Shown: piece after piece, positions 2,995 to 45,919 of the stretch
Numbering within the stretch: position 1 is the first letter of the stretch
How the letters are laid out: every line of letters starts with the position of its first letter
Source of the DNA: Patescibacteria group bacterium
GTDB lineage: Bacteria; Patescibacteriota; Kazan-3B-28
DNA: 64,000 nucleotides
Reading direction: 5' to 3'
Assembly (NCBI GenBank): GCA_041389145.1
Contig: JAWKSK010000002.1
Span: forward strand, 3,311 to 67,310
The notes under the pieces: model-generated
Databases searched by the model: none
Told to the model about the DNA's origin: nothing
Seen by the model: only the letters and a program-made list of their open reading frames with translations
Program-made: the position numbers and the translations under genes

Positions 2995-4569
2995 ATGCTT
3001 AAAAAGCTAATCAATAGAACTTCTACTTTAAAAGAGGCAGCTGCTGTACTAGCAGTTGCTTCTTTGGTTAGTCGTTTGTTTGGAGTGGTAAGGGATAGCG
3101 TAATTGCATCCCATTATGCTGGAGATATATCAGATGCATATTTAGCTGCATTTGTTATCCCAGACTTCATCTTTAATCTTTTGATATTAGGGGCACTGTC
3201 TTCCGCTTTCATTCCAATCTTTACTGGTTATTTGAAGAGGAATGGAGAAGGTAATGATGAAGCTTGGGCACTGGTGAATACGTTGGTAAATGTCGGGGTG
3301 GTAGGTTTGGCCGTGGTGTTACTGGGTGGTGTGATGGCAGCACCGGTTTTAGTAAAGTTTGTTGCTCCGGGATTTGATCCAGGAAAACAAGAAATGGTGA
3401 TTATGATGATGAGAATAATGTTCTTATCTCCATTGTTCTTTGGTTTGAGTAACCTGGCTGGTGGAATCTTAAACTCATTTAAAAACTTCTTAGCTTACTC
3501 GTTAGCCCCAATTTTGTATAACGTGGGTATTATTGTGGGAGCTATCTACTTGGTTCCAATGATGGGATATATTGGTTTGGCATATGGTGTTGTGTTGGGT
3601 GCGTTGATGCATATGTTAATCCAACTGCCAGGAGTATTTAGTTTGGGGTATAAGTATCGGATGCATATAGATTTTAGACATCCGGCATTGAAACGGATGG
3701 CGGTGCTAATGATCCCAAGAACATTAGGGGTAGGGGTGGTGCAGGTAAATACAATTATTAACACGGCAATTGCATCTACATTGGCAGGTGGTGCGGTTTC
3801 GGTATTTAAATGGGCAGATAATCTGCAGAGCGTACCAATTGGAATTTTTGGTGTGTCATTTGCAGTGGCAGTGTTCCCAACCTTAGCGGAAAAATATAGC
3901 TTGCAAAAAATAGGGGAGTTTAGAGAAGACGTGGTGGCAGTTTTGCGGCAGATCTCATTCTTTGTGATTCCTTCGATGATGTTGTATTGGATATTACGTG
4001 CTCAGATTGTGAGACTGGTGTTGGGGTACGGTGCTTTTGACTGGGAGTTTACTAGGTTTACGGTATCAACACTGGCATTCTTCACCTTCGGTATGCTGGC
4101 TCAGTCGGTAATCCATTTATTGGCAAGATCGTTCTATGCATTGCATGACACCAAAACTCCACTGCTTGTTAGTTTGGGTGTGGTGTTAATTAATGCTGGG
4201 TTAGCATGGGAGTTATCACGATACTGGGGAGTTATTGGATTGGCAGGAGCAATTTCGATATCTGCCACAATTAATGCCGTGGTATTGTTTGGATTGTTGG
4301 CAAAAAGGTTAGGGGGTATGCCATGGTCTGAAATATTTGGATATTTAGGCAGAGTGATTTTGGCTAGCTTGGGAATGGGTGCAGTTGCTTACACGATGTT
4401 GAGGGTAGTTGATTTGATAGTGGTAACCCATACGTTTGTAGGTATTTTAAGTCAGACATTAATTACAGTATTGGTTGCAATCTTTGCCTACTTGGCGATG
4501 GCCAAACTATTAGCACTACCAGAAATGCAAATGATTGTGGGTCCGATTAGACGGATGGTTAGGAAATAA
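2995..4569 (+). CDS. murJ: Lipid II flippase MurJ (MviN)
   Basis: 524-aa polytopic membrane protein with MurJ-like N-terminus (AAAVLAVASLVSRLFGVVRD...AFIPIFT). Confidence 0.85.
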   Translation: MLKKLINRTSTLKEAAAVLAVASLVSRLFGVVRDSVIASHYAGDISDAYLAAFVIPDFIFNLLILGALSSAFIPIFTGYLKRNGEGNDEAWALVNTLVNVGVVGLAVVLLGGVMAAPVLVKFVAPGFDPGKQEMVIMMMRIMFLSPLFFGLSNLAGGILNSFKNFLAYSLAPILYNVGIIVGAIYLVPMMGYIGLAYGVVLGALMHMLIQLPGVFSLGYKYRMHIDFRHPALKRMAVLMIPRTLGVGVVQVNTIINTAIASTLAGGAVSVFKWADNLQSVPIGIFGVSFAVAVFPTLAEKYSLQKIGEFREDVVAVLRQISFFVIPSMMLYWILRAQIVRLVLGYGAFDWEFTRFTVSTLAFFTFGMLAQSVIHLLARSFYALHDTKTPLLVSLGVVLINAGLAWELSRYWGVIGLAGAISISATINAVVLFGLLAKRLGGMPWSEIFGYLGRVILASLGMGAVAYTMLRVVDLIVVTHTFVGILSQTLITVLVAIFAYLAMAKLLALPEMQMIVGPIRRMVRK

Positions 4570-5161: not shown

Positions 5162-5331
5162 TAGATTTCCCCTTTGCTTCCACCCAGTTCCTGGGTAGGG
5201 AAGCGATAATCTCAACCCTTTTGAAAGTTCATTGGTAGTGCTAGAATTGCATTACCAATCTCGCTTTGATTATACACTAATTATTGGTTCTTGTCAATGA
5301 AAATCCGCTCTGGTACACTGTTTTTAAGGAT

Positions 5332-7104
5332 ATGAAAGACATTAGAAATTTCTGTATTATTGCCCATATTGACCACGGTAAATCTACCTTGGCAGATAGA
5401 CTATTGGAAAAGACCGAAACAGTAACTGCTCGAGAAATGAAAGAGCAGCTTTTGGATACTATGGATTTGGAGCGGGAAAGAGGGATTACTATCAAGCTTC
5501 AGCCTGTAAGGATGAAGTATAAAGGGTATACCTTGAATTTGATTGATACCCCTGGTCACGTAGATTTTACATATGAGGTTTCAAGGTCTTTGGCCGCTGT
5601 TGAAGGCGCAATTTTGCTAGTAGATGCAACCCAAGGAATTGAAGCTCAAACCTTAGCAAACTTGAACTTGGCTTTAGAGCATGATTTAGAAATTATTCCA
5701 GCAATTAATAAGATTGATTTACCGGCAGCTGATCCGGAAAGAATCATCAATGAACTTGAATCTGTGATTGGAATTAAGAGAGAGGAAGTACTGTTGGTTT
5801 CTGGTAAGACTGGGGATGGGGTAATGGAGCTTTTGGATGCGGTGGTAGAAAGAGTTCCTGAACCAAAGGGGAATGAAAGTGCTGAACTGAGAGGATTGGT
5901 ATTTGATTCATACTTTGATCCATTCCGTGGAGTAGTAGCATATGTGCGCATTATGGATGGTGAGATTAAGTCTGGCCAGAAGATTAGAATGATGGCATCT
6001 GGAGCAGAAGCAGAGGTAATGGAAACAGGATTCTTCATGCCAAAGTTAACCAAACAAAATGAACTTGAAACAGGTCAGATTGGGTATGTGGCAACTGGAT
6101 TAAAAGAGGTAAGTAAGGTGCGCGTTGGTGATACTATCACTGGTGTTGCAGAAAACCCTAGTCCATTGCCCGGATACAAGCCGGCCGCTCCATTTGTATA
6201 TGCTGGGTTGTTTACAGTTGATAATGCAGACTTTCCTCAATTGCGTGAGGCATTGGATAAGTTGCAGTTGAGTGATTCTGCTCTGGTATTTGAACCGGAA
6301 AGTTCTCCAGCATTAGGGTTTGGATTCCGGTGTGGATTTTTGGGCTTGTTGCACATGGAGATTGTGCAAGAAAGATTGGAGCGTGAATTTAATTTAGACT
6401 TAGTAACAACAACTCCAAGTGTAAGTTACAAAATTGTGACTGCACGTGGGCATGAAGAAAAAACAATTCATAATCCTACTGAACTACCTGAGTCTAACTT
6501 TTATATTTCCATCTCAGAACCTTGGATTAAGTTAGAGATTGTGACACCTAATAGTTATCTTGGTGGAGTGATGCAGTTAATCCAGGGAAGACGTGGGGTG
6601 CAGGTCGATATTAAGTATTTAGATGCAGATCGAGTACTGGCTATCTATGAGATTCCATTAGCATCCGTTATCACCGATTTTTATGATCAGTTAAAAAGTA
6701 TTAGCTCCGGGTATGCTTCTTTGACCTATGAAATGATTGGGTTTAGAGAAGGGGATTTGGTAAAGGTGGATGTGCTATTAAATGGTGATGTAGTAGATAC
6801 CTTGTCAGTGATTGTGCACAAGAGTGAAGTGCAAAGGATTGGCAACCAGGTAACTACTAAGTTGAAAGAACTGTTGCCCAAGCAGAGCTTTAAGATTGTG
6901 ATTCAAGCAGCTATTGGTGGCAGAATTATTTCGAGATCAGAAATTGCCCCGTTTAGAAAAGATGTAACAGCTAAACTGTATGGGGGAGATGTAACCCGTA
7001 AAAATAAACTGTTAGACAAACAGAAGAAGGGTAAAAAGCGGATGAAAATGGTGGGTAAGGTGGAAATCCCTCAGGCAGCATTCATGAAAATGCTTGAGAA
7101 GTAG
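5332..7104 (+). CDS. lepA: Elongation factor 4 (LepA)
   Basis: Start at MKDIRNF (in-frame upstream extension in the ORF track rejected). GTPase motifs AHIDHGKST, DTPGH, NKID; conserved LepA C-terminal domain. Confidence 0.95.
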   Translation: MKDIRNFCIIAHIDHGKSTLADRLLEKTETVTAREMKEQLLDTMDLERERGITIKLQPVRMKYKGYTLNLIDTPGHVDFTYEVSRSLAAVEGAILLVDATQGIEAQTLANLNLALEHDLEIIPAINKIDLPAADPERIINELESVIGIKREEVLLVSGKTGDGVMELLDAVVERVPEPKGNESAELRGLVFDSYFDPFRGVVAYVRIMDGEIKSGQKIRMMASGAEAEVMETGFFMPKLTKQNELETGQIGYVATGLKEVSKVRVGDTITGVAENPSPLPGYKPAAPFVYAGLFTVDNADFPQLREALDKLQLSDSALVFEPESSPALGFGFRCGFLGLLHMEIVQERLEREFNLDLVTTTPSVSYKIVTARGHEEKTIHNPTELPESNFYISISEPWIKLEIVTPNSYLGGVMQLIQGRRGVQVDIKYLDADRVLAIYEIPLASVITDFYDQLKSISSGYASLTYEMIGFREGDLVKVDVLLNGDVVDTLSVIVHKSEVQRIGNQVTTKLKELLPKQSFKIVIQAAIGGRIISRSEIAPFRKDVTAKLYGGDVTRKNKLLDKQKKGKKRMKMVGKVEIPQAAFMKMLEK

Positions 7105-7501: not shown

Positions 7502-7750
7502 ATGGTTTTTGCAGAGCAGGTTATTGCTGTAGTGATTCTCATCTTCACAGGATGGATAGGAAAACGTTACAGGGATTCAAATGCAGGGTGGACCGAGATA
7601 GTGATATTAACTCTTGGTCTCATGATTATGGTCTCTGTCGGTATCGTAATCTCGGGAATTTCCTGGATTTGGTACTTTGCATCAGCAATTCCAGTCATTT
7701 CCATCGCGGTAATGGATTGGTTGGGGTCACGCACTGTTGTCGGTAAATAA
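7502..7750 (+). CDS. Small hypothetical membrane protein
   Basis: 82 aa, hydrophobic, follows a GGAGG-like RBS (aggaggttgagATG). Confidence 0.35.
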   Translation: MVFAEQVIAVVILIFTGWIGKRYRDSNAGWTEIVILTLGLMIMVSVGIVISGISWIWYFASAIPVISIAVMDWLGSRTVVGK

Positions 7751-7779
7751 AAGCCGACTTCATTATTTGTTCTTCAAAT

Positions 7780-7804
7780 CTAGGGCTTCGGCCCTAGTTT
7801 TTTA
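7780..7804 (+). terminator. Rho-independent terminator
   Basis: ctagggc ttcg gccctag followed by tttttta. Confidence 0.6.
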
Positions 7805-7844
7805 TTAGCAATATATTGACAAGAGTGCTAACCAGCGTTAAATT
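7805..7844 (+). promoter_or_regulatory. CIRCE-like HrcA operator overlapping a sigma-70-like promoter upstream of hrcA-grpE-dnaK
   Basis: TTAGCAATA-N9-GAGTGCTAA (7805-7831) vs consensus TTAGCACTC-N9-GAGTGCTAA. Right arm 9/9, left arm 6/9. Embedded TTGACA (7816-7821), 17-nt spacer, TAAATT. Confidence 0.45.
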
Positions 7845-7881
7845 ATGAAAGCTATACAACTTTTTTGATGTTAGTTTTTCA

Positions 7882-8586
7882 ATGAACGAACGCCAAAAAC
7901 AAGTACTAAAAGTAATCGTTGAGGAGTTTGTAAAACTCCATGAACCAATTGGTTCAAGCCACGTAGTGGAAATGTTGCCGTTGTCGGTTAGTTCGGCAAC
8001 TATTCGTAATGATATGGCATTGTTGACTGAGGCTGGTTATCTTTCACAGCCACATACTTCTGCTGGAAGGGTTCCTACAGAAGATGGGTATCGGGAATAC
8101 ATTGCCTACACAATGCAGGAGCAAAAAGAGTTATCCCGCAGACAGCAGGAAATTCTGTCTAATCATTTTAAGAAGTTAAGAACGTTACAGGAGAAGTTTA
8201 AAGAAGCTGCAAAGATGCTTTCGGAACTATCCGGTAGCGTTAGTTTGCTAGTGGATGAAACAGATCAGGTGTATATGTCCGGTTTGTCAAAACTCCCGCA
8301 ACTACCAGAGTTTAGGGATAGTGATTTTGGAGAAGAGTTCATGAGTCTGTTAGAGGATCCAGCGACCAGAATGAAAGGATTGGTGGAGGCAGATATGGAA
8401 AATGCCCATCCTCGAATCTTGTTGGGTTCAGATAACCCGGTGAATGGAAAAACTTCAATTGTGATTACTAGATTTGGTCCAAATGGTAAGAAGGTAATCT
8501 CAGTAGTTGGGCCGGTACGAATGCATTATGGGAAAACAATACCGGCATTGGAATATATAAAGAAGATATTGGATGAGGAGGTGTAA
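7882..8586 (+). CDS. hrcA: Heat-inducible transcription repressor HrcA (short form)
   Basis: N-terminal winged-helix region KQVLKVIVEEF...PIGS typical of HrcA. Sits upstream of grpE-dnaK with the CIRCE-like element upstream. Confidence 0.8.
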   Translation: MNERQKQVLKVIVEEFVKLHEPIGSSHVVEMLPLSVSSATIRNDMALLTEAGYLSQPHTSAGRVPTEDGYREYIAYTMQEQKELSRRQQEILSNHFKKLRTLQEKFKEAAKMLSELSGSVSLLVDETDQVYMSGLSKLPQLPEFRDSDFGEEFMSLLEDPATRMKGLVEADMENAHPRILLGSDNPVNGKTSIVITRFGPNGKKVISVVGPVRMHYGKTIPALEYIKKILDEEV

Positions 8587-14212: not shown

Positions 14213-15865
14213 ATGTTTAGTCGTTCAGCACAGAGATTTTGGGAAATTTTACCAGGTTTAACTACCTGGTCGATTTTAATATTGCCAGTTATTCTATCGA
14301 TTTTTTTTCCGGAAGGATTGGCATATTTCATTATTGTTTTTGATGTTTACTGGTTAACTAACGCCTTAATATTTGGAGGTCATCTGTGGTCTGGATTTAT
14401 TCATATGAAGCGAGCCATGAAAATAGATTGGCTGGAACGGTTGCATAAGACAGATAACTTGCAGGCTTGGTCTGATGAACTTAAGGCTAAGTTATTAGGT
14501 TTACGGGGTTTTGAAGCACGTAAGGTACATGAGGAATGGGAAGAGGTAGAAGCAATATTGAGACTTCCTGAAACCCAGAAGTCATGGCGGGAAGTGGTGC
14601 ATTCCGTAATTTATGCAATATATAAAGAGAGCTACGAAGTGGTAACTGCTTCGGTGCAGGCATGTTTAGCTACTAATTATCCAAAGGATAGGATAATGCT
14701 GGTATTGGCATTAGAAGAGAGGGCAGGTGAGGAGGCAGTGAAGATGGCGAATCGAATAAAAGAAGAATACGGAGATCAATTCTTTGATGTCTTGATTACT
14801 GTTCATCCAGATGGAATCGTAGGCGAAATTAAAGCCAAGGGAGCTAATGTATATCACGCAGGTCAGGAGTTAAAGAAGTATGTAGATGAGCATCAAATGG
14901 ATTATGAGGATGTGATGGTGTCTTGTTTTGACGCAGATACACTGCCAAGTCGTCAGTACTTTGCCAATCTGACTTATAAATATGTAATTAATCCGGAAAG
15001 AACCTATCGGAGTTATCAGCCAATCCCATTATTTAATAACAACATGTGGGATGTTCCAATGATGAATAGGCTAGTAGCTTTTGGTTCTTCCTATTGGCAG
15101 ATTATTGAGTCTACTCGTCCGTATCGACTTGTTAATTTCTCTTCACAAGCAATGAGTTTGAAGACCTTGGTAGAGATTGATTTTTGGGACAAGAGTGTGG
15201 TATCAGAGGATTCAAAGCAGTATTACCGGGCATATTATCACTATCATGGTAACCACAAAGTTGTTCCAATCTTTGCACCAGTATCAATGGATGCAGTGAT
15301 GGGTAAAAACTATTGGGACACAATGAAGGCCCAGTATATCCAAAAGCGGAGATGGGCATGGGGGATTGAGCATCTTCCATATGTAATGGAGAAGTTCTTC
15401 TCAAAGAGGGGAATCATGACTTTTTATGAAAGAGCTATTCACCCGTATAGAATATATGTAGGACATGTAGCATGGGCTACATCGTCACTGTTGATTGCAT
15501 TGGGTGCATGGATGCCAGTGTGGTTGAATGCGGACTTTAGAAGCTCAATCCTGGCATATCATCTACCAGTTCTTGCCCGTGATTTATTAAGTATTACCTG
15601 GGTAGGTATTGCTCTTCAGGCAATTATTGCAATGCAATTGTTGCCACCAAGACCAGACCATCATGGGATTGGTAAGAATATTGAGATGATTTTGATGTGG
15701 ATTCTAATGCCAATATCTGGAATATTGTTTGGATCATTGGCAGCAATTGATGCTGAAACGAGATTGATGTTTGGAAGATATCTGGGTTTTCATGTAACTG
15801 CAAAAGAGCGTAAAAGTACGATTGATCACCATCGGGTGGATATTACTTCGGTTAAGAACTCTTAA
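14213..15865 (+). CDS. Membrane-embedded family-2 glycosyltransferase (cellulose/chitin/hyaluronan-synthase-like processive GT)
   Basis: DxD motif CFDADTL and Q(R/Q)xRW motif QKRRWAWG, flanked by multiple TM helices. Confidence 0.75.
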   Translation: MFSRSAQRFWEILPGLTTWSILILPVILSIFFPEGLAYFIIVFDVYWLTNALIFGGHLWSGFIHMKRAMKIDWLERLHKTDNLQAWSDELKAKLLGLRGFEARKVHEEWEEVEAILRLPETQKSWREVVHSVIYAIYKESYEVVTASVQACLATNYPKDRIMLVLALEERAGEEAVKMANRIKEEYGDQFFDVLITVHPDGIVGEIKAKGANVYHAGQELKKYVDEHQMDYEDVMVSCFDADTLPSRQYFANLTYKYVINPERTYRSYQPIPLFNNNMWDVPMMNRLVAFGSSYWQIIESTRPYRLVNFSSQAMSLKTLVEIDFWDKSVVSEDSKQYYRAYYHYHGNHKVVPIFAPVSMDAVMGKNYWDTMKAQYIQKRRWAWGIEHLPYVMEKFFSKRGIMTFYERAIHPYRIYVGHVAWATSSLLIALGAWMPVWLNADFRSSILAYHLPVLARDLLSITWVGIALQAIIAMQLLPPRPDHHGIGKNIEMILMWILMPISGILFGSLAAIDAETRLMFGRYLGFHVTAKERKSTIDHHRVDITSVKNS

Positions 15866-17892: not shown

Positions 17893-18129
17893 AGTACTTG
17901 CAAAATTAATCTTTTAAAACGAGGTGAATTTGGAGCGAAAGCTTCATAGACGGGTGCAAAATATTGCAGCTGTTTTTACATCATTCTAGCGATTGATTTT
18001 ACGCCCTTTTCCAATCAGTAAGTACTTAGATATCCTTTAGAGTTAATTATTTTTGGGCTTACTTATTAAGTAAGCTAACAGTTGGAATCATCCGGACGCC
18101 TATTTATAGGTGTCACGGTTTCAACTTTT

Positions 18130-19594
<1,465 letters not shown>

Positions 19595-20279: not shown

Positions 20280-20356
20280 TGGTGGACCTGCGGGGATTCG
20301 AACCCCGGACCCCCTGCTTGCAAAGCAGGTGCTCTAGCCAACTGAGCTACAGGCCC
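20280..20356 (-). tRNA. tRNA-Ala(TGC)
   Basis: GGGCCTGTAGCTCAGTTGGCTAGAGCACCTGCTTTGCAAGCAGGGGGTCCGGGGTTCGAATCCCCGCAGGTCCACCA with a G3-U70 pair. Confidence 0.9.
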
Positions 20357-20696: not shown

Positions 20697-20773
20697 GGGC
20701 ATATAGCTCAGCTGGTTAGAGCGCAGTCCTGATAAGACTGAGGTCCCTGGTTCGAATCCAGGTATGCCCACCA
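20697..20773 (+). tRNA. tRNA-Ile(GAT)
   Basis: GGGCATATAGCTCAGCTGGTTAGAGCGCAGTCCTGATAAGACTGAGGTCCCTGGTTCGAATCCAGGTATGCCCACCA. Confidence 0.9.
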
Positions 20774-39360: not shown

Positions 39361-39582
39361 ATGGACGAAAACATGAACAATGATGCTATGCCTCAGAATG
39401 ATGAAGGCATGATGAACAACGATGGTGACATGAACAACAACGATTCTATGCCTAACGAAGGTGACAACACCGAAATGGGTGGCGAAGGCGAAGCAAAGCC
39501 AGAAATGCCAGCTGAAGGCGAAGAAGAAGGTGGTGACATGAACACCGGTGGGGATGACATGGGTATGGATAACGCTGCTTAA
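39361..39582 (+). CDS. Highly acidic Met/Asn/Asp/Gly-rich 73-aa protein
   Basis: GGAGG RBS 10 nt upstream; own terminator downstream; repeated M-x-x-(D/N) and MxM spacing. Confidence 0.4.
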   Translation: MDENMNNDAMPQNDEGMMNNDGDMNNNDSMPNEGDNTEMGGEGEAKPEMPAEGEEEGGDMNTGGDDMGMDNAA

Positions 39583-39616: not shown

Positions 39617-39654
39617 AGCTGACCTCATTTACGGGGTCAGCTATATTTTGTTTG
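39617..39654 (+). terminator. Rho-independent terminator
   Basis: agctgacc tcatttacg gggtcagct atattttgtttg. Confidence 0.65.
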
Positions 39655-39713
39655 ACATAAGATATGAGATAACTAGTATATATAGAGCAAATTAGTTAAG
39701 AAAAAGGAGAAAG

Positions 39714-40994
39714 ATGCAAGTTTCTCGAGAAAATGTTTCTGGTAATAAGGTAAAGCTCACCATTACAACTGAAATGGGTGAGTGGAATGAACTATTAGAT
39801 AGTGCTGCTGCTTCATTGGGAAAGTCTGTAAAGATTGAAGGATTCCGTGAAGGCAAGGCCCCAAGAAGTGTAGTTATTAATAAAGTGGGTGAAGCCCGTG
39901 TGTTGTCGGCTGCATCTGAATTAGCAATTGAAAAGTTTTATCCACAAGCAGTTAGGGATGAAAAGTTACGTCCAATTAACTTCCCATCAGTAACTGTGGA
40001 TCAGGTAGGGTTAGATGCTCCAGTAGTATTTAGCGCCGAAGTGGCAGTAATGCCAGAAGTTACCCTTGGTGACTACACCAAGATCCGGGTAAAGAGAGAG
40101 GTTCCAGAAGTTAGTGACCAGATGGTAACTGATACTTTGGAAAGCATGCGCAAAAAGATGGCCGAATACAACGAAGTCGATCGGGAGGCCAAAGAAGGTG
40201 ACTGGACTGAAATTGATTTCACTGGCTATGTAGATGACAAAGAGTTTCCAGGTGGAGCATCTAAGAACCATCCATTGGTGATTGGGGAGAAGATGTTTAT
40301 CCCAGGTTTTGAAGAGGGACTGGTAGGAATGAAGGCTGGGGATGAAAAAGAAATTGAAGTTACCTTCCCAACTGAATACCATGCAGCAGAACTAGCAGGT
40401 AAGCCGGCTAAGTTTAAGGTGAAGTTGCACAAGGTAAAGGAAATGAGCTTACCTGAACAAGACGATGCTTTTGCTAAAAAGGCTTCTAAGTTTGAATCTT
40501 TAGATGAACTAAAGGCAGATATTCGTAAGTTCATGGAAGAGGATGCTAATAGAAGAGCAGACGAACAGGTAAGAGAAGAAGCAATTAAAGAACTAGTTAA
40601 GGTAGTGAAGTTGGAAGTTCCAGAAGAATTAGTGGAACAAGAACTAACCGCCATGCTTAACGATCTAAAAGGTAAGGTGGCAAATGCCCACATGACCTTT
40701 GAAGATTATTTGGGTAAGGCTGGTACTAATGAAGCAGGCCTTAAATCTCAGTGGAGAGAACAAGCTGTGGATAGAGTAAAGGCTGGCCTTGCCTTAGATG
40801 CATTGGCCACTAAAGAAGATATCCAAGTAACTCATGATGAAGTTCATGTAGAGTTGGATAAGTTAAAGGCCCAGTATCCAGACCAAGCTGAAGAAATTGA
40901 AAAACACTATGGTGGACATAATCATGGCCACTTGGAAAGTCAGCTAAGAACTAGAAAGGTAGTAGATAGGCTGATTGAGATAGCTGGACAGTGA
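39714..40994 (+). CDS. tig: Trigger factor
   Basis: N-terminal ribosome-binding domain, central FKBP-type PPIase domain (FTGYVDDKEFPGG...IPGFEEGLVGMKAGDEK), C-terminal helical domain. Confidence 0.9.
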   Translation: MQVSRENVSGNKVKLTITTEMGEWNELLDSAAASLGKSVKIEGFREGKAPRSVVINKVGEARVLSAASELAIEKFYPQAVRDEKLRPINFPSVTVDQVGLDAPVVFSAEVAVMPEVTLGDYTKIRVKREVPEVSDQMVTDTLESMRKKMAEYNEVDREAKEGDWTEIDFTGYVDDKEFPGGASKNHPLVIGEKMFIPGFEEGLVGMKAGDEKEIEVTFPTEYHAAELAGKPAKFKVKLHKVKEMSLPEQDDAFAKKASKFESLDELKADIRKFMEEDANRRADEQVREEAIKELVKVVKLEVPEELVEQELTAMLNDLKGKVANAHMTFEDYLGKAGTNEAGLKSQWREQAVDRVKAGLALDALATKEDIQVTHDEVHVELDKLKAQYPDQAEEIEKHYGGHNHGHLESQLRTRKVVDRLIEIAGQ

Positions 40995-40995
40995 T

Positions 40996-42540
40996 ATGTT
41001 GTTACGAATTAAGAATTATAGAGCATTCAGTGGTGATGACGGCTTTGAATTAAATTTATCTGATGGATTCGTAATCTCTCTACTTGGCCCTAATAATGCT
41101 GGGAAGAGCTCGGTTCTCAGATTGCTTTACGATTTAAAGGATTTGTTTTCAAGATTAGTAAGGCTTCATGGATTCGGAATTGGAAATCCAAGGTTTGAGT
41201 TTAACTACGTCTACTCACACCCTACTGAAATTGTTCCTCGAACCAGTGCTGATGGTGATTTTGAAATTACATTAAAAGACAACATTTCGAATCGCATAGT
41301 GTCTATTGTTTTAGTCGTCTCTGGAACTTCTGTAGAAAGTATAAACCTGCTGGTTGATGGAGAGCGCTTTTCTAATTTGGGGTATCAAATTAATAACGAC
41401 GTCCTTGTTTCTACCCGGGGGGAAGAGAATATTTCTTTGATTTCATTCAGGAAGGTGTTCAATGCTTTGTCTGACACATTTTATGTACCAGCATTTCGCA
41501 ATGCAATTAATCTCGGTTCGAATGAAAACTATATGGGTCTCAAAACAGGGACTTCCTTTATAAGATTGGTTGACGAACAAATTAGTTCTGATAATGCTAC
41601 GACTAGAATTGAAGCAGAGAAAATTACATCTGATATAAGAAGAATTCTGGATATGCCAGACTTTAGAATTTGGACTTCTCAAAATGGTAAATTGATGGTT
41701 CAGACTTCTACGGGGACATCTAGGCTTGAGGATTTGGGATCAGGTGTATCCCAACTTGTCATTGTTTTGTTAAATCTGGCAGTAGCAAAGCCAAGTATTA
41801 TTTTGATTGATGAACCAGAATTGGGACTGCATCCAGCTTTGCAAATCGCTTTTATTAATACTTTATTATCCTATTCAAAATATGGGGTAGCGTTTGCAAC
41901 GCATAGTATTGGACTTGCGAGGGCGACATCTGATCATGTTTATTGGATAGAACAAACTCGTGAGGGTAAATCTACACTTTCAAGTTTTGAGACTGACGGG
42001 AGAGTGAGCTATGAAGAATTTTTGGGCGAGGTAGGATTTGAGAGTATTGCAAAGTTGGACTATGAGACCTTGCTTCTTGTAGAGGGCAAGAATGATATTA
42101 AAGTGTTTCACCAATTACTAAGAAACTATTCAAAGCTCGATAGGGTTTTGATTTTACCTCTTGGAGGCGGGAATTTGATTAGGGGCGGTGTTGAGCTTGA
42201 AATGTCTCATTTTGCCCGAATTGCTGCTAGCTCAAAGTTGGCATGGATTGATAGTGATCGAACTGTTCCTGATGAAGATTTAGATCAGCATATCGTTGAT
42301 TTTGTTGACTTGTGTGCAATACCTCCAATATCTATTGATGTTAGTGTTTCTGATCGAAGAGAACTGGAAAATTATTTTCCTCATGAGTATATTTTAAATG
42401 TTATTCCTGGTTATCAAGATATTGGTTCTTTTGGTGAAGCAACGAGGGATTTAAAAAGATTAGGGTGGCAGGTTGCCAAGCGTATTAATCCTAGTGACTT
42501 AGAAGGAACTGATTTAGGAGTTTTTTTGAATGGGTTATAA
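40996..42540 (+). CDS. OLD-family-like ATP-dependent nuclease: N-terminal ABC/AAA_15-21 ATPase + C-terminal TOPRIM-like (DUF4435-like) domain
   Basis: IKNYRAFSG...LLGPNNAGKSSVLRLL (Walker A); IILIDEPELGLHPALQ (Walker B/D-loop); C-terminal LLLVEGKNDIKVFHQLL, LPLGGGN and acidic cluster WIDSDRTVPDEDLD. ATG is 1 nt after the tig TGA. Confidence 0.65.
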   Translation: MLLRIKNYRAFSGDDGFELNLSDGFVISLLGPNNAGKSSVLRLLYDLKDLFSRLVRLHGFGIGNPRFEFNYVYSHPTEIVPRTSADGDFEITLKDNISNRIVSIVLVVSGTSVESINLLVDGERFSNLGYQINNDVLVSTRGEENISLISFRKVFNALSDTFYVPAFRNAINLGSNENYMGLKTGTSFIRLVDEQISSDNATTRIEAEKITSDIRRILDMPDFRIWTSQNGKLMVQTSTGTSRLEDLGSGVSQLVIVLLNLAVAKPSIILIDEPELGLHPALQIAFINTLLSYSKYGVAFATHSIGLARATSDHVYWIEQTREGKSTLSSFETDGRVSYEEFLGEVGFESIAKLDYETLLLVEGKNDIKVFHQLLRNYSKLDRVLILPLGGGNLIRGGVELEMSHFARIAASSKLAWIDSDRTVPDEDLDQHIVDFVDLCAIPPISIDVSVSDRRELENYFPHEYILNVIPGYQDIGSFGEATRDLKRLGWQVAKRINPSDLEGTDLGVFLNGL

Positions 42541-42583
42541 TACTATTGAATGATATAGCATCAGCAAATAATCAAAACCAGCT

Positions 42584-43156
42584 ATGAGTCTTGTTCCAAT
42601 GGTTATCGATAAGTCCCCGGCAGGTGAGCGGGCTTTCGACATTTATTCCAGATTGCTTAAGGACAGAATTGTATTCTTAAGTGGTCCGGTAGAGAGCGAT
42701 AGTGCTAATACAGTTATTGCTCAGCTTTTGTTTTTAGCAGCAGAAGATCCTAAGAAGGATATCTTCTTATACATCAATAGTCCTGGAGGGTCAGTTACAG
42801 ATGGAATGGCTATCTATGACACGATGCAACACATCAAACCAGATGTGGTGACTATTTGTGTAGGAATGGCAGCTTCTATGGGAGCAGTTCTATTAGCTGG
42901 TGGAGCCAAGGGTAAGCGTCATGCATTACCTAACTCACGAGTAATGATTCACCAGGTATTGGGTGGAGCACAAGGACAGGCAAGTGATATTGAAATTCAT
43001 GCCAAGGAAATCTTGAGATGGAAATCTAAATTAAATGAAGTATTGGCAAAGCATACCAAGCAGAAGTTAGAGAAGATTGAACGAGATACTGATCGTGATA
43101 ACTTCATGGATGCTAGTGAAGCCAAGGCATATGGATTAATTGATGAGGTATTTTAA
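42584..43156 (+). CDS. clpP: ATP-dependent Clp protease proteolytic subunit ClpP
   Basis: GMAASMGA active-site Ser context, catalytic His in MIHQVLGG, 190 aa. Confidence 0.95.
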
Positions 43157-43159
43157 ACA

Positions 43160-43612
43160 ATGTTGAACGAACAAGAATTACAGAATGCTATTGAAGAAGC
43201 ATTAAGACAGTCTGGAGATGTAGATTTGTCTGCAACTACTGGGATAACTGATACTTATAGTTGGTTGGGTGGTTACGGAAGCGGATTAGCTACAACTTGG
43301 AGTTGGATTTTAACTTTAGTAATCGTTGCAGCTCAATGGGCAATTTTCGAAAAAGCAAAGCAACCTGGATGGGCTGCAATTATTCCTATTTATGGAACTC
43401 TCATTTTCCTAAAGATTGCCAATCGTCCATGGTGGTGGATTTTCTTGTTCCTGATTCCAATCGTAGGATTGGTATATGGAATTATGGCATCTCATCAGAT
43501 ATCTAAGGCATTCGGTAAAGGAACAGGATTTACAGTTGGTTTGGTATTGTTGCCATTTGTGTTCTATCCAATCTTGGCCTTTAGTTCAGACAAATATCAG
43601 AAGCCAGCCTAG
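43160..43612 (+). CDS. Hypothetical membrane protein
   Basis: 150 aa; soluble N-terminus then 3 TM helices with Trp-rich stretch NRPWWWIF; occupies the position usually held by clpX. Confidence 0.4.
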   Translation: MLNEQELQNAIEEALRQSGDVDLSATTGITDTYSWLGGYGSGLATTWSWILTLVIVAAQWAIFEKAKQPGWAAIIPIYGTLIFLKIANRPWWWIFLFLIPIVGLVYGIMASHQISKAFGKGTGFTVGLVLLPFVFYPILAFSSDKYQKPA

Positions 43613-45199: not shown

Positions 45200-45274
45200 G
45201 CCCAAGTAGCTCAGGGGTAGAGCACTCCCATGGTAAGGGAGGGGTCACGAGTTCAAATCTCGTCTTGGGCTCCA
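45200..45274 (+). tRNA. tRNA-Thr(GGT)
   Basis: GCCCAAGTAGCTCAGGGGTAGAGCACTCCCATGGTAAGGGAGGGGTCACGAGTTCAAATCTCGTCTTGGGCTCCA. Confidence 0.9.
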
Positions 45275-45279
45275 TGTAA

Positions 45280-45364
45280 GCCGAGGTACCGAAGCGGTCA
45301 AACGGGACTGACTGTAAATCAGTTGGCTATGCCTTCCTAGGTTCGAATCCTAGCCTCGGCACCA
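45280..45364 (+). tRNA. tRNA-Tyr(GTA), long variable arm
   Basis: GCCGAGGTACCGAAGCGGTCAAACGGGACTGACTGTAAATCAGTTGGCTATGCCTTCCTAGGTTCGAATCCTAGCCTCGGCACCA. Confidence 0.9.
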
Positions 45365-45366
45365 TT

Positions 45367-45441
45367 GCCGGCTTAGCTCAGTGGTAGAGCAATCGCTTTG
45401 TAAGCGAAAGGTCATCGGTTCAAGTCCGATAGCCGGCTCCA
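45367..45441 (+). tRNA. tRNA-Thr(TGT)
   Basis: GCCGGCTTAGCTCAGTGGTAGAGCAATCGCTTTGTAAGCGAAAGGTCATCGGTTCAAGTCCGATAGCCGGCTCCA. Confidence 0.9.
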
Positions 45442-45460
45442 CTAAATTTAAATAGAAAGA

Positions 45461-45491
45461 AAGCGCGCTTCCCGTAGGTTGCGCGCTTTTT
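45461..45491 (+). terminator. Rho-independent terminator after the tRNA cluster
   Basis: aaagcgcgc ttcccgtaggtt gcgcgctttttcc. Confidence 0.7.
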
Positions 45492-45511
45492 CCAAATTGA
45501 GGGGCAGCTGG

Positions 45512-45919
45512 TTAGGCTGCTTTCTTCTCATGAACGAGGATGTCGTCGGGATGGATATGGAGAGGGTATCGGCCATTCCTTAAACCCTCCTTCTCGGTTC
45601 TCGACTTATCATCCTGAGGGGTGGCCGGCATGCCGACCTTTCTCATGACCAGTTCGTGGACGTTCTTGTCGAGCTGCGTACGAGTGAGCTCGGCAATGTC
45701 ATACCGGATTTGCGAGAAATCATCCCAACGGTTGCTGTTCTCGGCAATCACTTGGCGAATAGATTGAGCGACCGCATTCTGGATGCCGGTATTCTTGAGA
45801 ACATGATAGGTGACGCAGACAACAGCTGTATCACCATTCGAGATCGCTACTTCAAGCTCTATGCTGAACGCAGAGAACTCATCAAGGATAGGGTCAGCTA
45901 TCCGAAAACTGCTACTCAT
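45512..45919 (-). CDS. Hypothetical protein, visibly GC-rich relative to neighbours
   Basis: 135-aa ORF with no motif; about 50% or more G+C by eye against an about 40% background. Confidence 0.4.
   Translation of the reverse strand: MSSSFRIADPILDEFSAFSIELEVAISNGDTAVVCVTYHVLKNTGIQNAVAQSIRQVIAENSNRWDDFSQIRYDIAELTRTQLDKNVHELVMRKVGMPATPQDDKSRTEKEGLRNGRYPLHIHPDDILVHEKKAA

Follow-up and report, generated by a model that had tools for sequence, protein, structure and literature searches.

A probable class-1-type OLD-family ATPase-Toprim nuclease gene at a variable site separating tig from clpP in a Patescibacteria genome

We analysed a gene within a 64,000-nucleotide (nt) stretch of DNA from a Patescibacteria group bacterium (Kazan-3B-28 lineage; assembly GCA_041389145.1, contig JAWKSK010000002.1, positions 3,311 to 67,310 of the forward strand), and the whole stretch is called the window below. 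The gene occupies positions 40996 to 42540, between tig and clpP, and its 514-amino acid (aa) product is most probably a stand-alone, class-1-type member of the OLD (overcoming lysogenisation defect) family, composed of an ABC-type ATPase and a Toprim two-metal nuclease, that was acquired horizontally and placed in the tig-clpP slot of this Kazan-related lineage. An initial annotation, made from the sequence, had proposed the ATPase plus Toprim architecture of the OLD family for this open reading frame (ORF), and sequence profiles, hhalign, Foldseek and the catalytic residues all bear this architecture out. The gene and the two borders of the slot are as follows.

40996-42540, forward strand: OLD-type gene, stop codon included, encoding the 514-aa ATPase-Toprim protein (probable class-1-type OLD-family nuclease)
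39714-40994, forward strand: tig (trigger factor), left border of the slot (Pfam Trigger_N 1.5e-36, FKBP_C 9.4e-18, Trigger_C 5.4e-33)
42584-43156, forward strand: clpP, right border of the slot (Pfam CLP_protease 1.4e-86)

That the 514-aa ORF is a genuine gene, and did not arise as an open frame by chance, is clear from the deposit of an identical protein (MEZ4210320.1, 'MAG: AAA family ATPase [Patescibacteria group bacterium]') and from hundreds of full-length homologues. Its borders agree with those proposed at the outset: the tig TGA is at 40992-40994, a single T follows at 40995, the ATG of the OLD-type gene is at 40996-40998, and its TAA at 42538-42540 leaves a 43-nt gap to the clpP ATG at 42584. 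All motifs on which the proposal was based are present in the translation, namely GPNNAGKS (aa 31-38), IILIDEPELGLHP (aa 268-280), LLVEGKND (aa 360-367), LPLGGG (aa 387-392) and WIDSD (aa 417-421).

The N-terminal part of the protein is an ABC-type ATPase, and Pfam recognises AAA_15 (6.7e-17) and AAA_21 (8.7e-17) in aa 1-307, both over the cut-off. A family profile (alignment A1) was built from 32 homologues, and residue conservation was counted over 247 members. The comparison proteins are the class 1 OLD of Thermus scotoductus (Ts OLD) and the Old protein of phage P2.

40996-41985, forward strand: ABC-type ATPase region, aa 1-330 (Pfam, AlphaFold2 model, Foldseek)
41086-41109, forward strand: Walker A/P-loop GPNNAGKS, aa 31-38, with Lys37; invariant (244 of 247, the remaining three gapped)
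41734-41754, forward strand: ABC signature-like motif LGSGVSQ, aa 247-253; Gly248 and Gly250 invariant, Gln253 in 215 of 247
41797-41835, forward strand: Walker B and D-loop with Asp272, Glu273 and His279, invariant among the 247 homologues
41899-41904, forward strand: H-loop Thr302-His303; His conserved in 244 of 247 members and matched to 'STHS' in the alignments with Ts OLD and P2 Old

The Walker B and D-loop region aligns to 'IIEEPEMYLHP' of Ts OLD and 'IDEPELYLHP' of P2 Old, and the D-loop His lies seven residues past the Walker B acid, the same distance as in Ts OLD (E276/H283) and P2 Old (D299/H306). The residues that mark an OLD ATPase, the Walker A Lys, the Walker B acid, the D-loop His and the H-loop His, are thus all present. 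In the AlphaFold2 model, a two-helix insert (aa 185-218) is found where OLD and Rad50 proteins carry a dimerisation or coiled-coil insert.

The C-terminal part is a Toprim domain of the OLD type, and not one closest to AriB/DUF4435, because of its sub-threshold profile matches, its AlphaFold2 model and the Foldseek comparisons. Below threshold, the 32 homologues match DUF3226 (29 of 32), OLD-like_TOPRIM (28 of 32, best E 1.5e-4) and Toprim (8 of 32). The AlphaFold2 model of aa 332-514 has a mean predicted local distance difference test score (pLDDT) of 89.4 and a predicted template modelling score (pTM) of 0.84; its fold is a beta/alpha core of four strands with helices after it.

42058-42537, forward strand: Toprim nuclease domain, aa 355-514
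42082-42096, forward strand: Toprim Glu motif EGKND, with Glu363 as putative metal A ligand and Asp367 as putative metal B ligand
42250-42258, forward strand: DxD-type motif Asp419-Ser420-Asp421, putative metal A ligands (family consensus DSE; invariant D-S-E/D)
42355-42375, forward strand: RRELENY motif (family consensus RRAxENY), with Glu458 as putative second metal B ligand

In the hidden Markov model (HMM) alignment, LLVEGxxD lies over LLVEGYGD of Ts OLD (E377, D381) and LLVEGKTE of P2 Old (E398, E402); E363 is conserved in 247 of 247 members and D/E367 in 246. Asp419 follows Glu363 by 56 residues, the corresponding spacing being 54 in Ts OLD and 55 in P2 Old, and Asp419-Ser420-Asp421 closes a predicted strand at its C-terminal end; the motif, the spacing and the strand end point to Asp419 and Asp421 as putative metal A ligands. 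R455, E458, N459 and Y460 are near-invariant and D506 is essentially invariant, and Glu458 is a plausible counterpart of S478/E480 of Ts OLD. Position 467 is Lys in 169, Gln in 40 and Arg in 23 members (232 of 247), and is Leu in the protein studied here.

The catalytic residues of the two reference proteins have been described (Schiltz et al., PMC7049728). For Ts OLD, they are K34, E276, H283 and H310 in the ATPase, and E377/D431/D433 (metal A), D381/S478/E480 (metal B) and R487 in the Toprim domain; for P2 Old, they are K37, D299, H306 and H332 in the ATPase, and E398/D453/D455, E402/D541/E543 and K550 in the Toprim domain (PMC7049728). The HMM and hhalign alignments set K37, D272/E273, H279, H303, E363 and D367 of our protein on the catalytic positions of these two proteins. 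The residues K37, D272, E273, H279, H303, E363, D/E367, D419, E/D421 and E458 are essentially invariant among the homologues and all are present here, and the conserved ATPase and acidic Toprim residues match those whose mutation abolishes the activity of Ts OLD and P2 Old (PMC7049728). The conservation of the Toprim acids and the ATPase catalytic Glu, which had been named as a check on the proposed nuclease, is therefore intact.

Searches with the whole protein and with the family profile place it in the OLD family. The best PADLOC models are AriA (4.5e-19), NsnB, MAD3, AbiLi, Old (3.6e-13, aa 265-379), PtuA, ATPase-Toprim_I-B (aa 251-386), AriAB and GajA, so that the matches to OLD, AriA and GajA models that had been asked of the protein were obtained; most of the signal comes from the ATPase, and the Old, ATPase-Toprim, AriAB and GajA alignments extend into the start of the C-terminal domain (aa 379-386). 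NCBIfam returns only transporter ATPases far below threshold, together with weak matches to MAD3 and the retron Eco8 effector, and a single-sequence search of the PDB returns only transporter ATPases and a weak match to the Eco8 OLD. The family profile matches Ts OLD (6p74) with an E-value of 9e-9 from the signature/Walker B region through the first Toprim motif, and matches AriA, PtuA, GajA and the Eco8 OLD more weakly. An hhalign comparison of this profile with P2 Old gives a probability of 97.6% and an E-value of 4.3e-12. Structure prediction leads to the same relatives: the full-length AlphaFold2 model (pLDDT 83) has Ts OLD as its top Foldseek match (E 1.3e-12), with Rad50, GajA, PtuA and the Eco8 OLD close, consistent with the comparison that the initial annotation had called for.

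The subfamily to which the protein belongs is small, uncharacterised and of fixed architecture. There are 563 homologous database proteins at E <= 1e-3, with E-values down to 1e-87, and the best 120 of these are all full-length (510-548 aa) and 31-38% identical. The C-terminal profile, searched against 1.84 billion representative proteins, has 1801 matches at E <= 1e-3, 958 at <= 1e-10 and 553 at <= 1e-30; the best 150 are mostly 500-560 aa long with the domain at the C-terminus, and the shorter ones look like fragments. Named members come from metagenome-assembled genomes of Acidobacteria, Dehalococcoidia and Patescibacteria, and plasmid records contain only distant AAA ATPases (22-29% identity).

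OLD classes are defined by genomic context (PMC10568477), and by this definition the gene is class 1, because it stands alone between tig and clpP and no partner gene is conserved beside it. Genes for a UvrD-like helicase, a reverse transcriptase or a separate Toprim protein are missing from the neighbourhood in the window, as had been noted for the helicase, and the downstream gene is clpP; the only nearby helicase gene is recG, which lies on the opposite strand 6 kb upstream and is part of the conserved housekeeping backbone. An Rfam scan of the whole window finds no retron RNA, only 16S rRNA and transfer RNAs (tRNAs), and the adjacent reverse transcriptase and retron noncoding RNA of class 3 OLD are both lacking at the locus. 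The homologue contexts (loci L008, L009 and L011/L012) have no neighbouring gene in common: an aminotransferase and two-component genes, two ParE pairs, and unknown genes with a HicB are found there. One of these homologues, P0105 (L009; contig of 142 kb), has a ParE-toxin/antitoxin pair on either side (5200-5693 and 7603-8198), a context typical of accessory or defence islands. Of the two forms first proposed, a class-1 OLD-like protein or a fused AriA-AriB-like protein, the former is favoured, and the latter, with no DUF4435 signature, is quite unlikely.

We compared the tig-clpP interval with that of relatives chosen as a graded series by Tig homology, followed by contig look-ups (eight relatives, nine genomes with the window); a scan of genome contigs with Tig returned only a distant Bacillota locus that gave no synteny information. 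The relatives share the backbone recG-tyrS-PBP1a-small ORF-tig-[slot]-clpP-holB-TPR, and the content of the slot differs as follows (Tig identity in brackets).

L002/L003 (96%): 1045-aa type IIG restriction-modification enzyme, PADLOC REase_MTase_IIG 8.9e-247
L004 (85%): 123-aa ORF on the opposite strand
L005 (68%): 110-aa ORF
L006 (68%): empty, 99 nt
L007 (67%): 143-aa ORF
L016 (53%): 199-aa ORF
L018/L019, candidate division Kazan (53%): purA

The OLD-type gene is absent at all eight related tig-clpP intervals examined, which share the same backbone; the gene is a sporadic insertion and not a conserved core component of the interval, the alternative against which the synteny comparison had been proposed. 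The DNA similarity between the window and the relatives ends exactly at the tig stop codon and resumes about 45 nt before the clpP ATG. The OLD-type gene has a GC content of 0.377 and a GC content at third codon positions (GC3) of 0.297, the lowest among ten neighbouring genes. The type IIG enzyme of the closest relative (L002 7323-10460, also in L003) carries MmeI_Mtase/Eco57I/Type_ISP_C domains, so two near-identical strains (Tig 96%) differ by a swap of defence genes at one site. The 110-143-aa slot ORFs of the relatives match no Pfam family. A recognisable mobile element was ruled out: no direct or inverted repeats flank the OLD-type gene, and no integrase or transposase ORF adjoins it.

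Beyond clpP, the locus departs from the operon that had been assumed, since clpX is not present there; clpP is followed by a gene for a 150-aa DUF5684 membrane protein (43160-43612, forward strand; Pfam 1.9e-27) and then by holB. In L005, L006, L007 and L018 holB directly follows clpP, and in L016 a different, 271-aa reverse-strand ORF is found there; the clpP-holB interval looks like a second small variable slot beside the tig-clpP slot. Just 5' of tig, a 73-aa ORF (39361-39582, forward strand) encodes a very acidic, low-complexity sequence rich in Asn, Asp, Glu, Met and Gly, with no Pfam match. ORFs of 60-128 aa occur at the same pre-tig position in L002/L003, L005, L006, L007 and L016/L017 (matched by position only), and none was called in the Kazan loci L018/L019.

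The sites that bear on transcription of the interval in the window are these.

39652-39679, forward strand: promoter-like site TTGACA-16-TAGTAT upstream of tig (consensus scan, 10 of 12 matches, a pattern match only)
42554-42559, forward strand: -10-like box TATAGC, preceded by TG, within the approximately 45 nt before clpP common to the relatives (L002 and L004-L007 aligned), marking the right border of the slot

The site at 39652-39679 is the sole strong promoter-like site in the scanned region of the window, and a transcript that also included the OLD-type gene would probably begin there. A -10-like box lies about 25-30 nt before clpP in all relatives, as TATAAT in L005-L007 and as TATAGC or TATAGT in the window, L002 and L004. 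In L006, whose slot is empty, a GC-rich hairpin (GGGAAGGGCGAGC-TTT-GCTCGCCCTTTTT) with a T run follows directly after tig (about 3460-3560), and a similar GC-rich hairpin follows tig in L004 (about 1345-1400). Because of this terminator-like hairpin after tig and the -10-like box before clpP, this lineage seems to transcribe tig and clpP as separate units, and the slot would then be an intergenic space between a terminator and a promoter, a variable hot spot instead of part of a tight operon. In the window genome, no terminator-like hairpin is found between tig and the OLD-type gene or between that gene and clpP. Since one nucleotide separates the tig stop from the next start and no terminator was found, it is plausible that the OLD-type gene is co-transcribed with tig and likely that it is translationally coupled to it. 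Of the co-transcribed tig-clpP operon in the initial annotation, the tight operon is thus not supported by the hairpin and the -10-like box, and co-transcription with tig stays plausible. The hypothetical link to heat-shock control is less compelling than first suggested.

To our knowledge, defence roles of class 1 OLD proteins have been demonstrated only for P2 Old and the Vibrio cholerae Vc OLD. Both can defend alone: ATP hydrolysis activates P2 Old, which then cleaves tRNA-Thr(UGU) in its anticodon stem (PMC12445682), and Vc OLD, a DNA nickase, blocks replication of the phage genome (PMC12392090). Ts OLD has both degrading and nicking activity on DNA (PMC7049728). An antiphage function of the gene studied here is suggested by its family membership, its sporadic distribution and the type IIG enzyme at the same site in the nearest relative. 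By analogy with OLD proteins, the ATPase head would dimerise, bind and hydrolyse ATP, and gate the enzyme on a phage-derived cue. The predicted Toprim site, with Glu363, Asp419 and Asp421 binding metal A and Asp367 and Glu458 binding metal B, would then nick or degrade nucleic acid and stop phage multiplication. The target may be either replicating phage DNA, as for Vc OLD and the Thermus OLD, or, on the model of P2 Old, the anticodon stem of a host tRNA. The window also contains a cluster of tRNA-Thr(GGU), tRNA-Tyr and tRNA-Thr(UGU) genes at 45200-45441 (forward strand), the UGU gene lying 2.8 kb downstream of the OLD-type gene; the nearness of this preferred P2 Old substrate is probably a coincidence.

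Several results weigh against a class 1 OLD defence nuclease. No Pfam model, OLD-like_TOPRIM (PF20469) included, reaches threshold on aa 332-514, and the Toprim domain is under the Pfam gathering threshold in every one of the 32 homologues, the PF20469 threshold being a criterion of a sequence model and not a definition of the family. Foldseek with the Toprim domain alone gives no significant match (best, the C-terminal region of a Xanthomonas OLD at E 0.02, then AriB), and the family profile of the C-terminal domain alone retrieves no OLD chain by sequence. No relationship is detected by hhalign between the family profile and YbjD, a class 1 OLD of E. coli, and tblastn against 50,697 phage records finds no homologue. 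The location in the slot is by itself no proof of defence, because the slot carries the non-defence gene purA in the Kazan genomes. Moreover, Leu467 could weaken the nuclease if position 467 corresponds to the transition-state residue Arg487 of Ts OLD or Lys550 of P2 Old. This substitution, where Lys, Arg or Gln is usual, would also suit a selfish or decaying passenger, that is, an addiction-type toxic nuclease or an inactive remnant with no present antiphage role, as would the Pfam label of AAA_21 ('putative AbiEii toxin'), the homologue between two ParE toxin-antitoxin pairs and the phenotypes of YbjD, which are independent of its Toprim domain (PMC13261556). We consider a passenger unlikely: the frame is full length with 100% coverage against its homologues, no ATPase or acidic Toprim residue has been lost, no antitoxin-like small ORF adjoins the gene, and position 467 is not strictly basic because Gln occupies it in 40 of 247 members.

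The remaining explanations concern the ATPase and its partners. A fused PARIS-like AriA-AriB protein (class 4), in which the ATPase senses a phage anti-restriction protein and releases or activates a DUF4435-type Toprim tRNase, is quite unlikely; AriA is the first of the PADLOC models, but the DUF4435/AriB-type reading was rejected, since the protein has no DUF4435 signature and its Toprim domain is closer to those of OLD classes 1 and 2. It is very unlikely that the gene encodes a housekeeping, cell-cycle or genome-maintenance ATPase (RecF, RecN or Cran1-like) co-expressed with proteostasis genes. The ATPase fold does resemble the heads of Rad50, SMC and RecN, the gene begins right against tig within a core region, and an archaeal OLD-family ATPase, Cran1, acts in cell-cycle progression and not in defence (PMC12796447), which tells against a defence role here as well. 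However, eight relatives of the same backbone lack the gene, one of them with a 96%-identical Tig; the nearest homologues, from unrelated phyla that include Acidobacteria and Dehalococcoidia, share only 31-38% identity with it; the GC3 is the lowest among the neighbours; and the closest relative has a restriction enzyme at the same site. We rejected this explanation on the absence from close relatives and the distant, cross-phylum homologues. An ATP-binding subunit of an ABC transporter, as automatic annotations of the homologues state, is so improbable as to be negligible. JGI annotates homologues with names such as 'ABC-type cobalamin/Fe3+-siderophores transport system ATPase subunit', and the best single-sequence PDB and NCBIfam matches are transporter ATPases at 1e-7 to 1e-8, but these cover the Walker A/B segments only and reach about 30 bits against NCBIfam cut-offs of more than 240. 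No permease or binding-protein gene lies beside the window gene or its homologues, the Toprim domain and the AAA_15/AAA_21-type ATPase are foreign to transporters, and domain architecture and gene context together effectively refute a transporter. A stand-alone class-1-type OLD nuclease is the reading that we retain.

Of the branches of this widespread antiphage family, class 1 is the least understood, and the substrates of P2 Old and Vc OLD differ (tRNA versus DNA). The locus adds to it a divergent, uncharacterised OLD subfamily that standard domain models recognise by half, and it offers a natural comparison of near-identical Patescibacteria strains with either an OLD-type gene or a type IIG enzyme at one site. 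It also shows that, next to core proteostasis genes, reduced Patescibacteria genomes maintain a small site where accessory genes are exchanged, and two of its observed occupants are of defence type. The practical value is modest: a candidate for biochemistry and a marker site for defence-gene turnover in uncultivated bacteria. More speculatively, and in our estimate improbable, the clade of about 520-aa proteins (about 550 clusters at 50% identity) could be a distinct OLD class, perhaps with its own trigger or substrate, defined by the DSE/RRAxENY Toprim domain that Pfam models miss and by the shortened helical insert, with its dosage tied to tig. If so, a defence gene would be wired into a housekeeping transcript of a minimal-genome symbiont, and coupling to trigger factor would tie the nuclease dosage to the expression of ribosome and proteostasis genes.

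Elsewhere in the window, the GC content rises to 0.52 over about 45200-45800; the tRNA cluster accounts for part of this rise, which continues over a 135-aa ORF (45512-45919, reverse strand) between the tRNA cluster and rplK, with a GC content of about 0.5 against 0.43 for the window and no Rfam match in the region 45512-45919. A complete 16S rRNA gene (18128-19592, forward strand) is followed downstream by tRNA-Ala (20280-20356, reverse strand) and tRNA-Ile (20697-20773, forward strand). The Rfam scan finds no 23S rRNA match anywhere in the window, and the 16S gene apparently has no 23S gene after it, an arrangement reported for some candidate phyla radiation bacteria. A 550-aa ORF (14213-15865, forward strand) matches no Pfam family at E <= 1e-8, in a region otherwise made up fully of housekeeping genes (ftsH, murJ, lepA, dnaK, recG, secDF, recJ and hisS).

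Among known systems, the closest are the class 1 OLD proteins Ts OLD (6P74), P2 Old and Vc OLD. Like these, the protein is encoded by a single gene without a dedicated partner, is of comparable length (about 500-590 aa), and joins an N-terminal ABC ATPase with a D-loop His and an H-loop His to a C-terminal Toprim domain with Glu-x3-Asp/Glu and DxD-type motifs at equal spacing, and class 1 OLD proteins are its best profile and structural matches among all solved proteins. It differs from them in that the identity in structural alignments is just about 15-16%, the subfamily consensus is DSE and not DxD, and the RRAxENY motif is specific to the subfamily. Ts OLD has a larger dimerisation domain, in place of which our protein has the short two-helix insert, and it is reported without a defining signature, whereas LGSGxxQ is present here. 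Unlike Gabija GajA (class 2), our protein has no GajB/UvrD-like helicase beside its gene or its homologues and is about 60 aa shorter; unlike PARIS AriA/AriB (class 4), it is one fused 514-aa polypeptide instead of two proteins, without a DUF4435 signature and with a Toprim domain closer to those of classes 1 and 2. A variable slot between core genes is a known pattern for defence genes, as described for the E. coli pan-genome (PMC10121019). Compared with the hot spots mapped there, the tig-clpP slot is alike in its fixed site and varied cargo, with two defence-type genes and with neither mobility genes nor flanking repeats, and is distinct in lying between tig and clpP of a reduced Patescibacteria genome, with single-gene occupants, one of which (purA) is metabolic.

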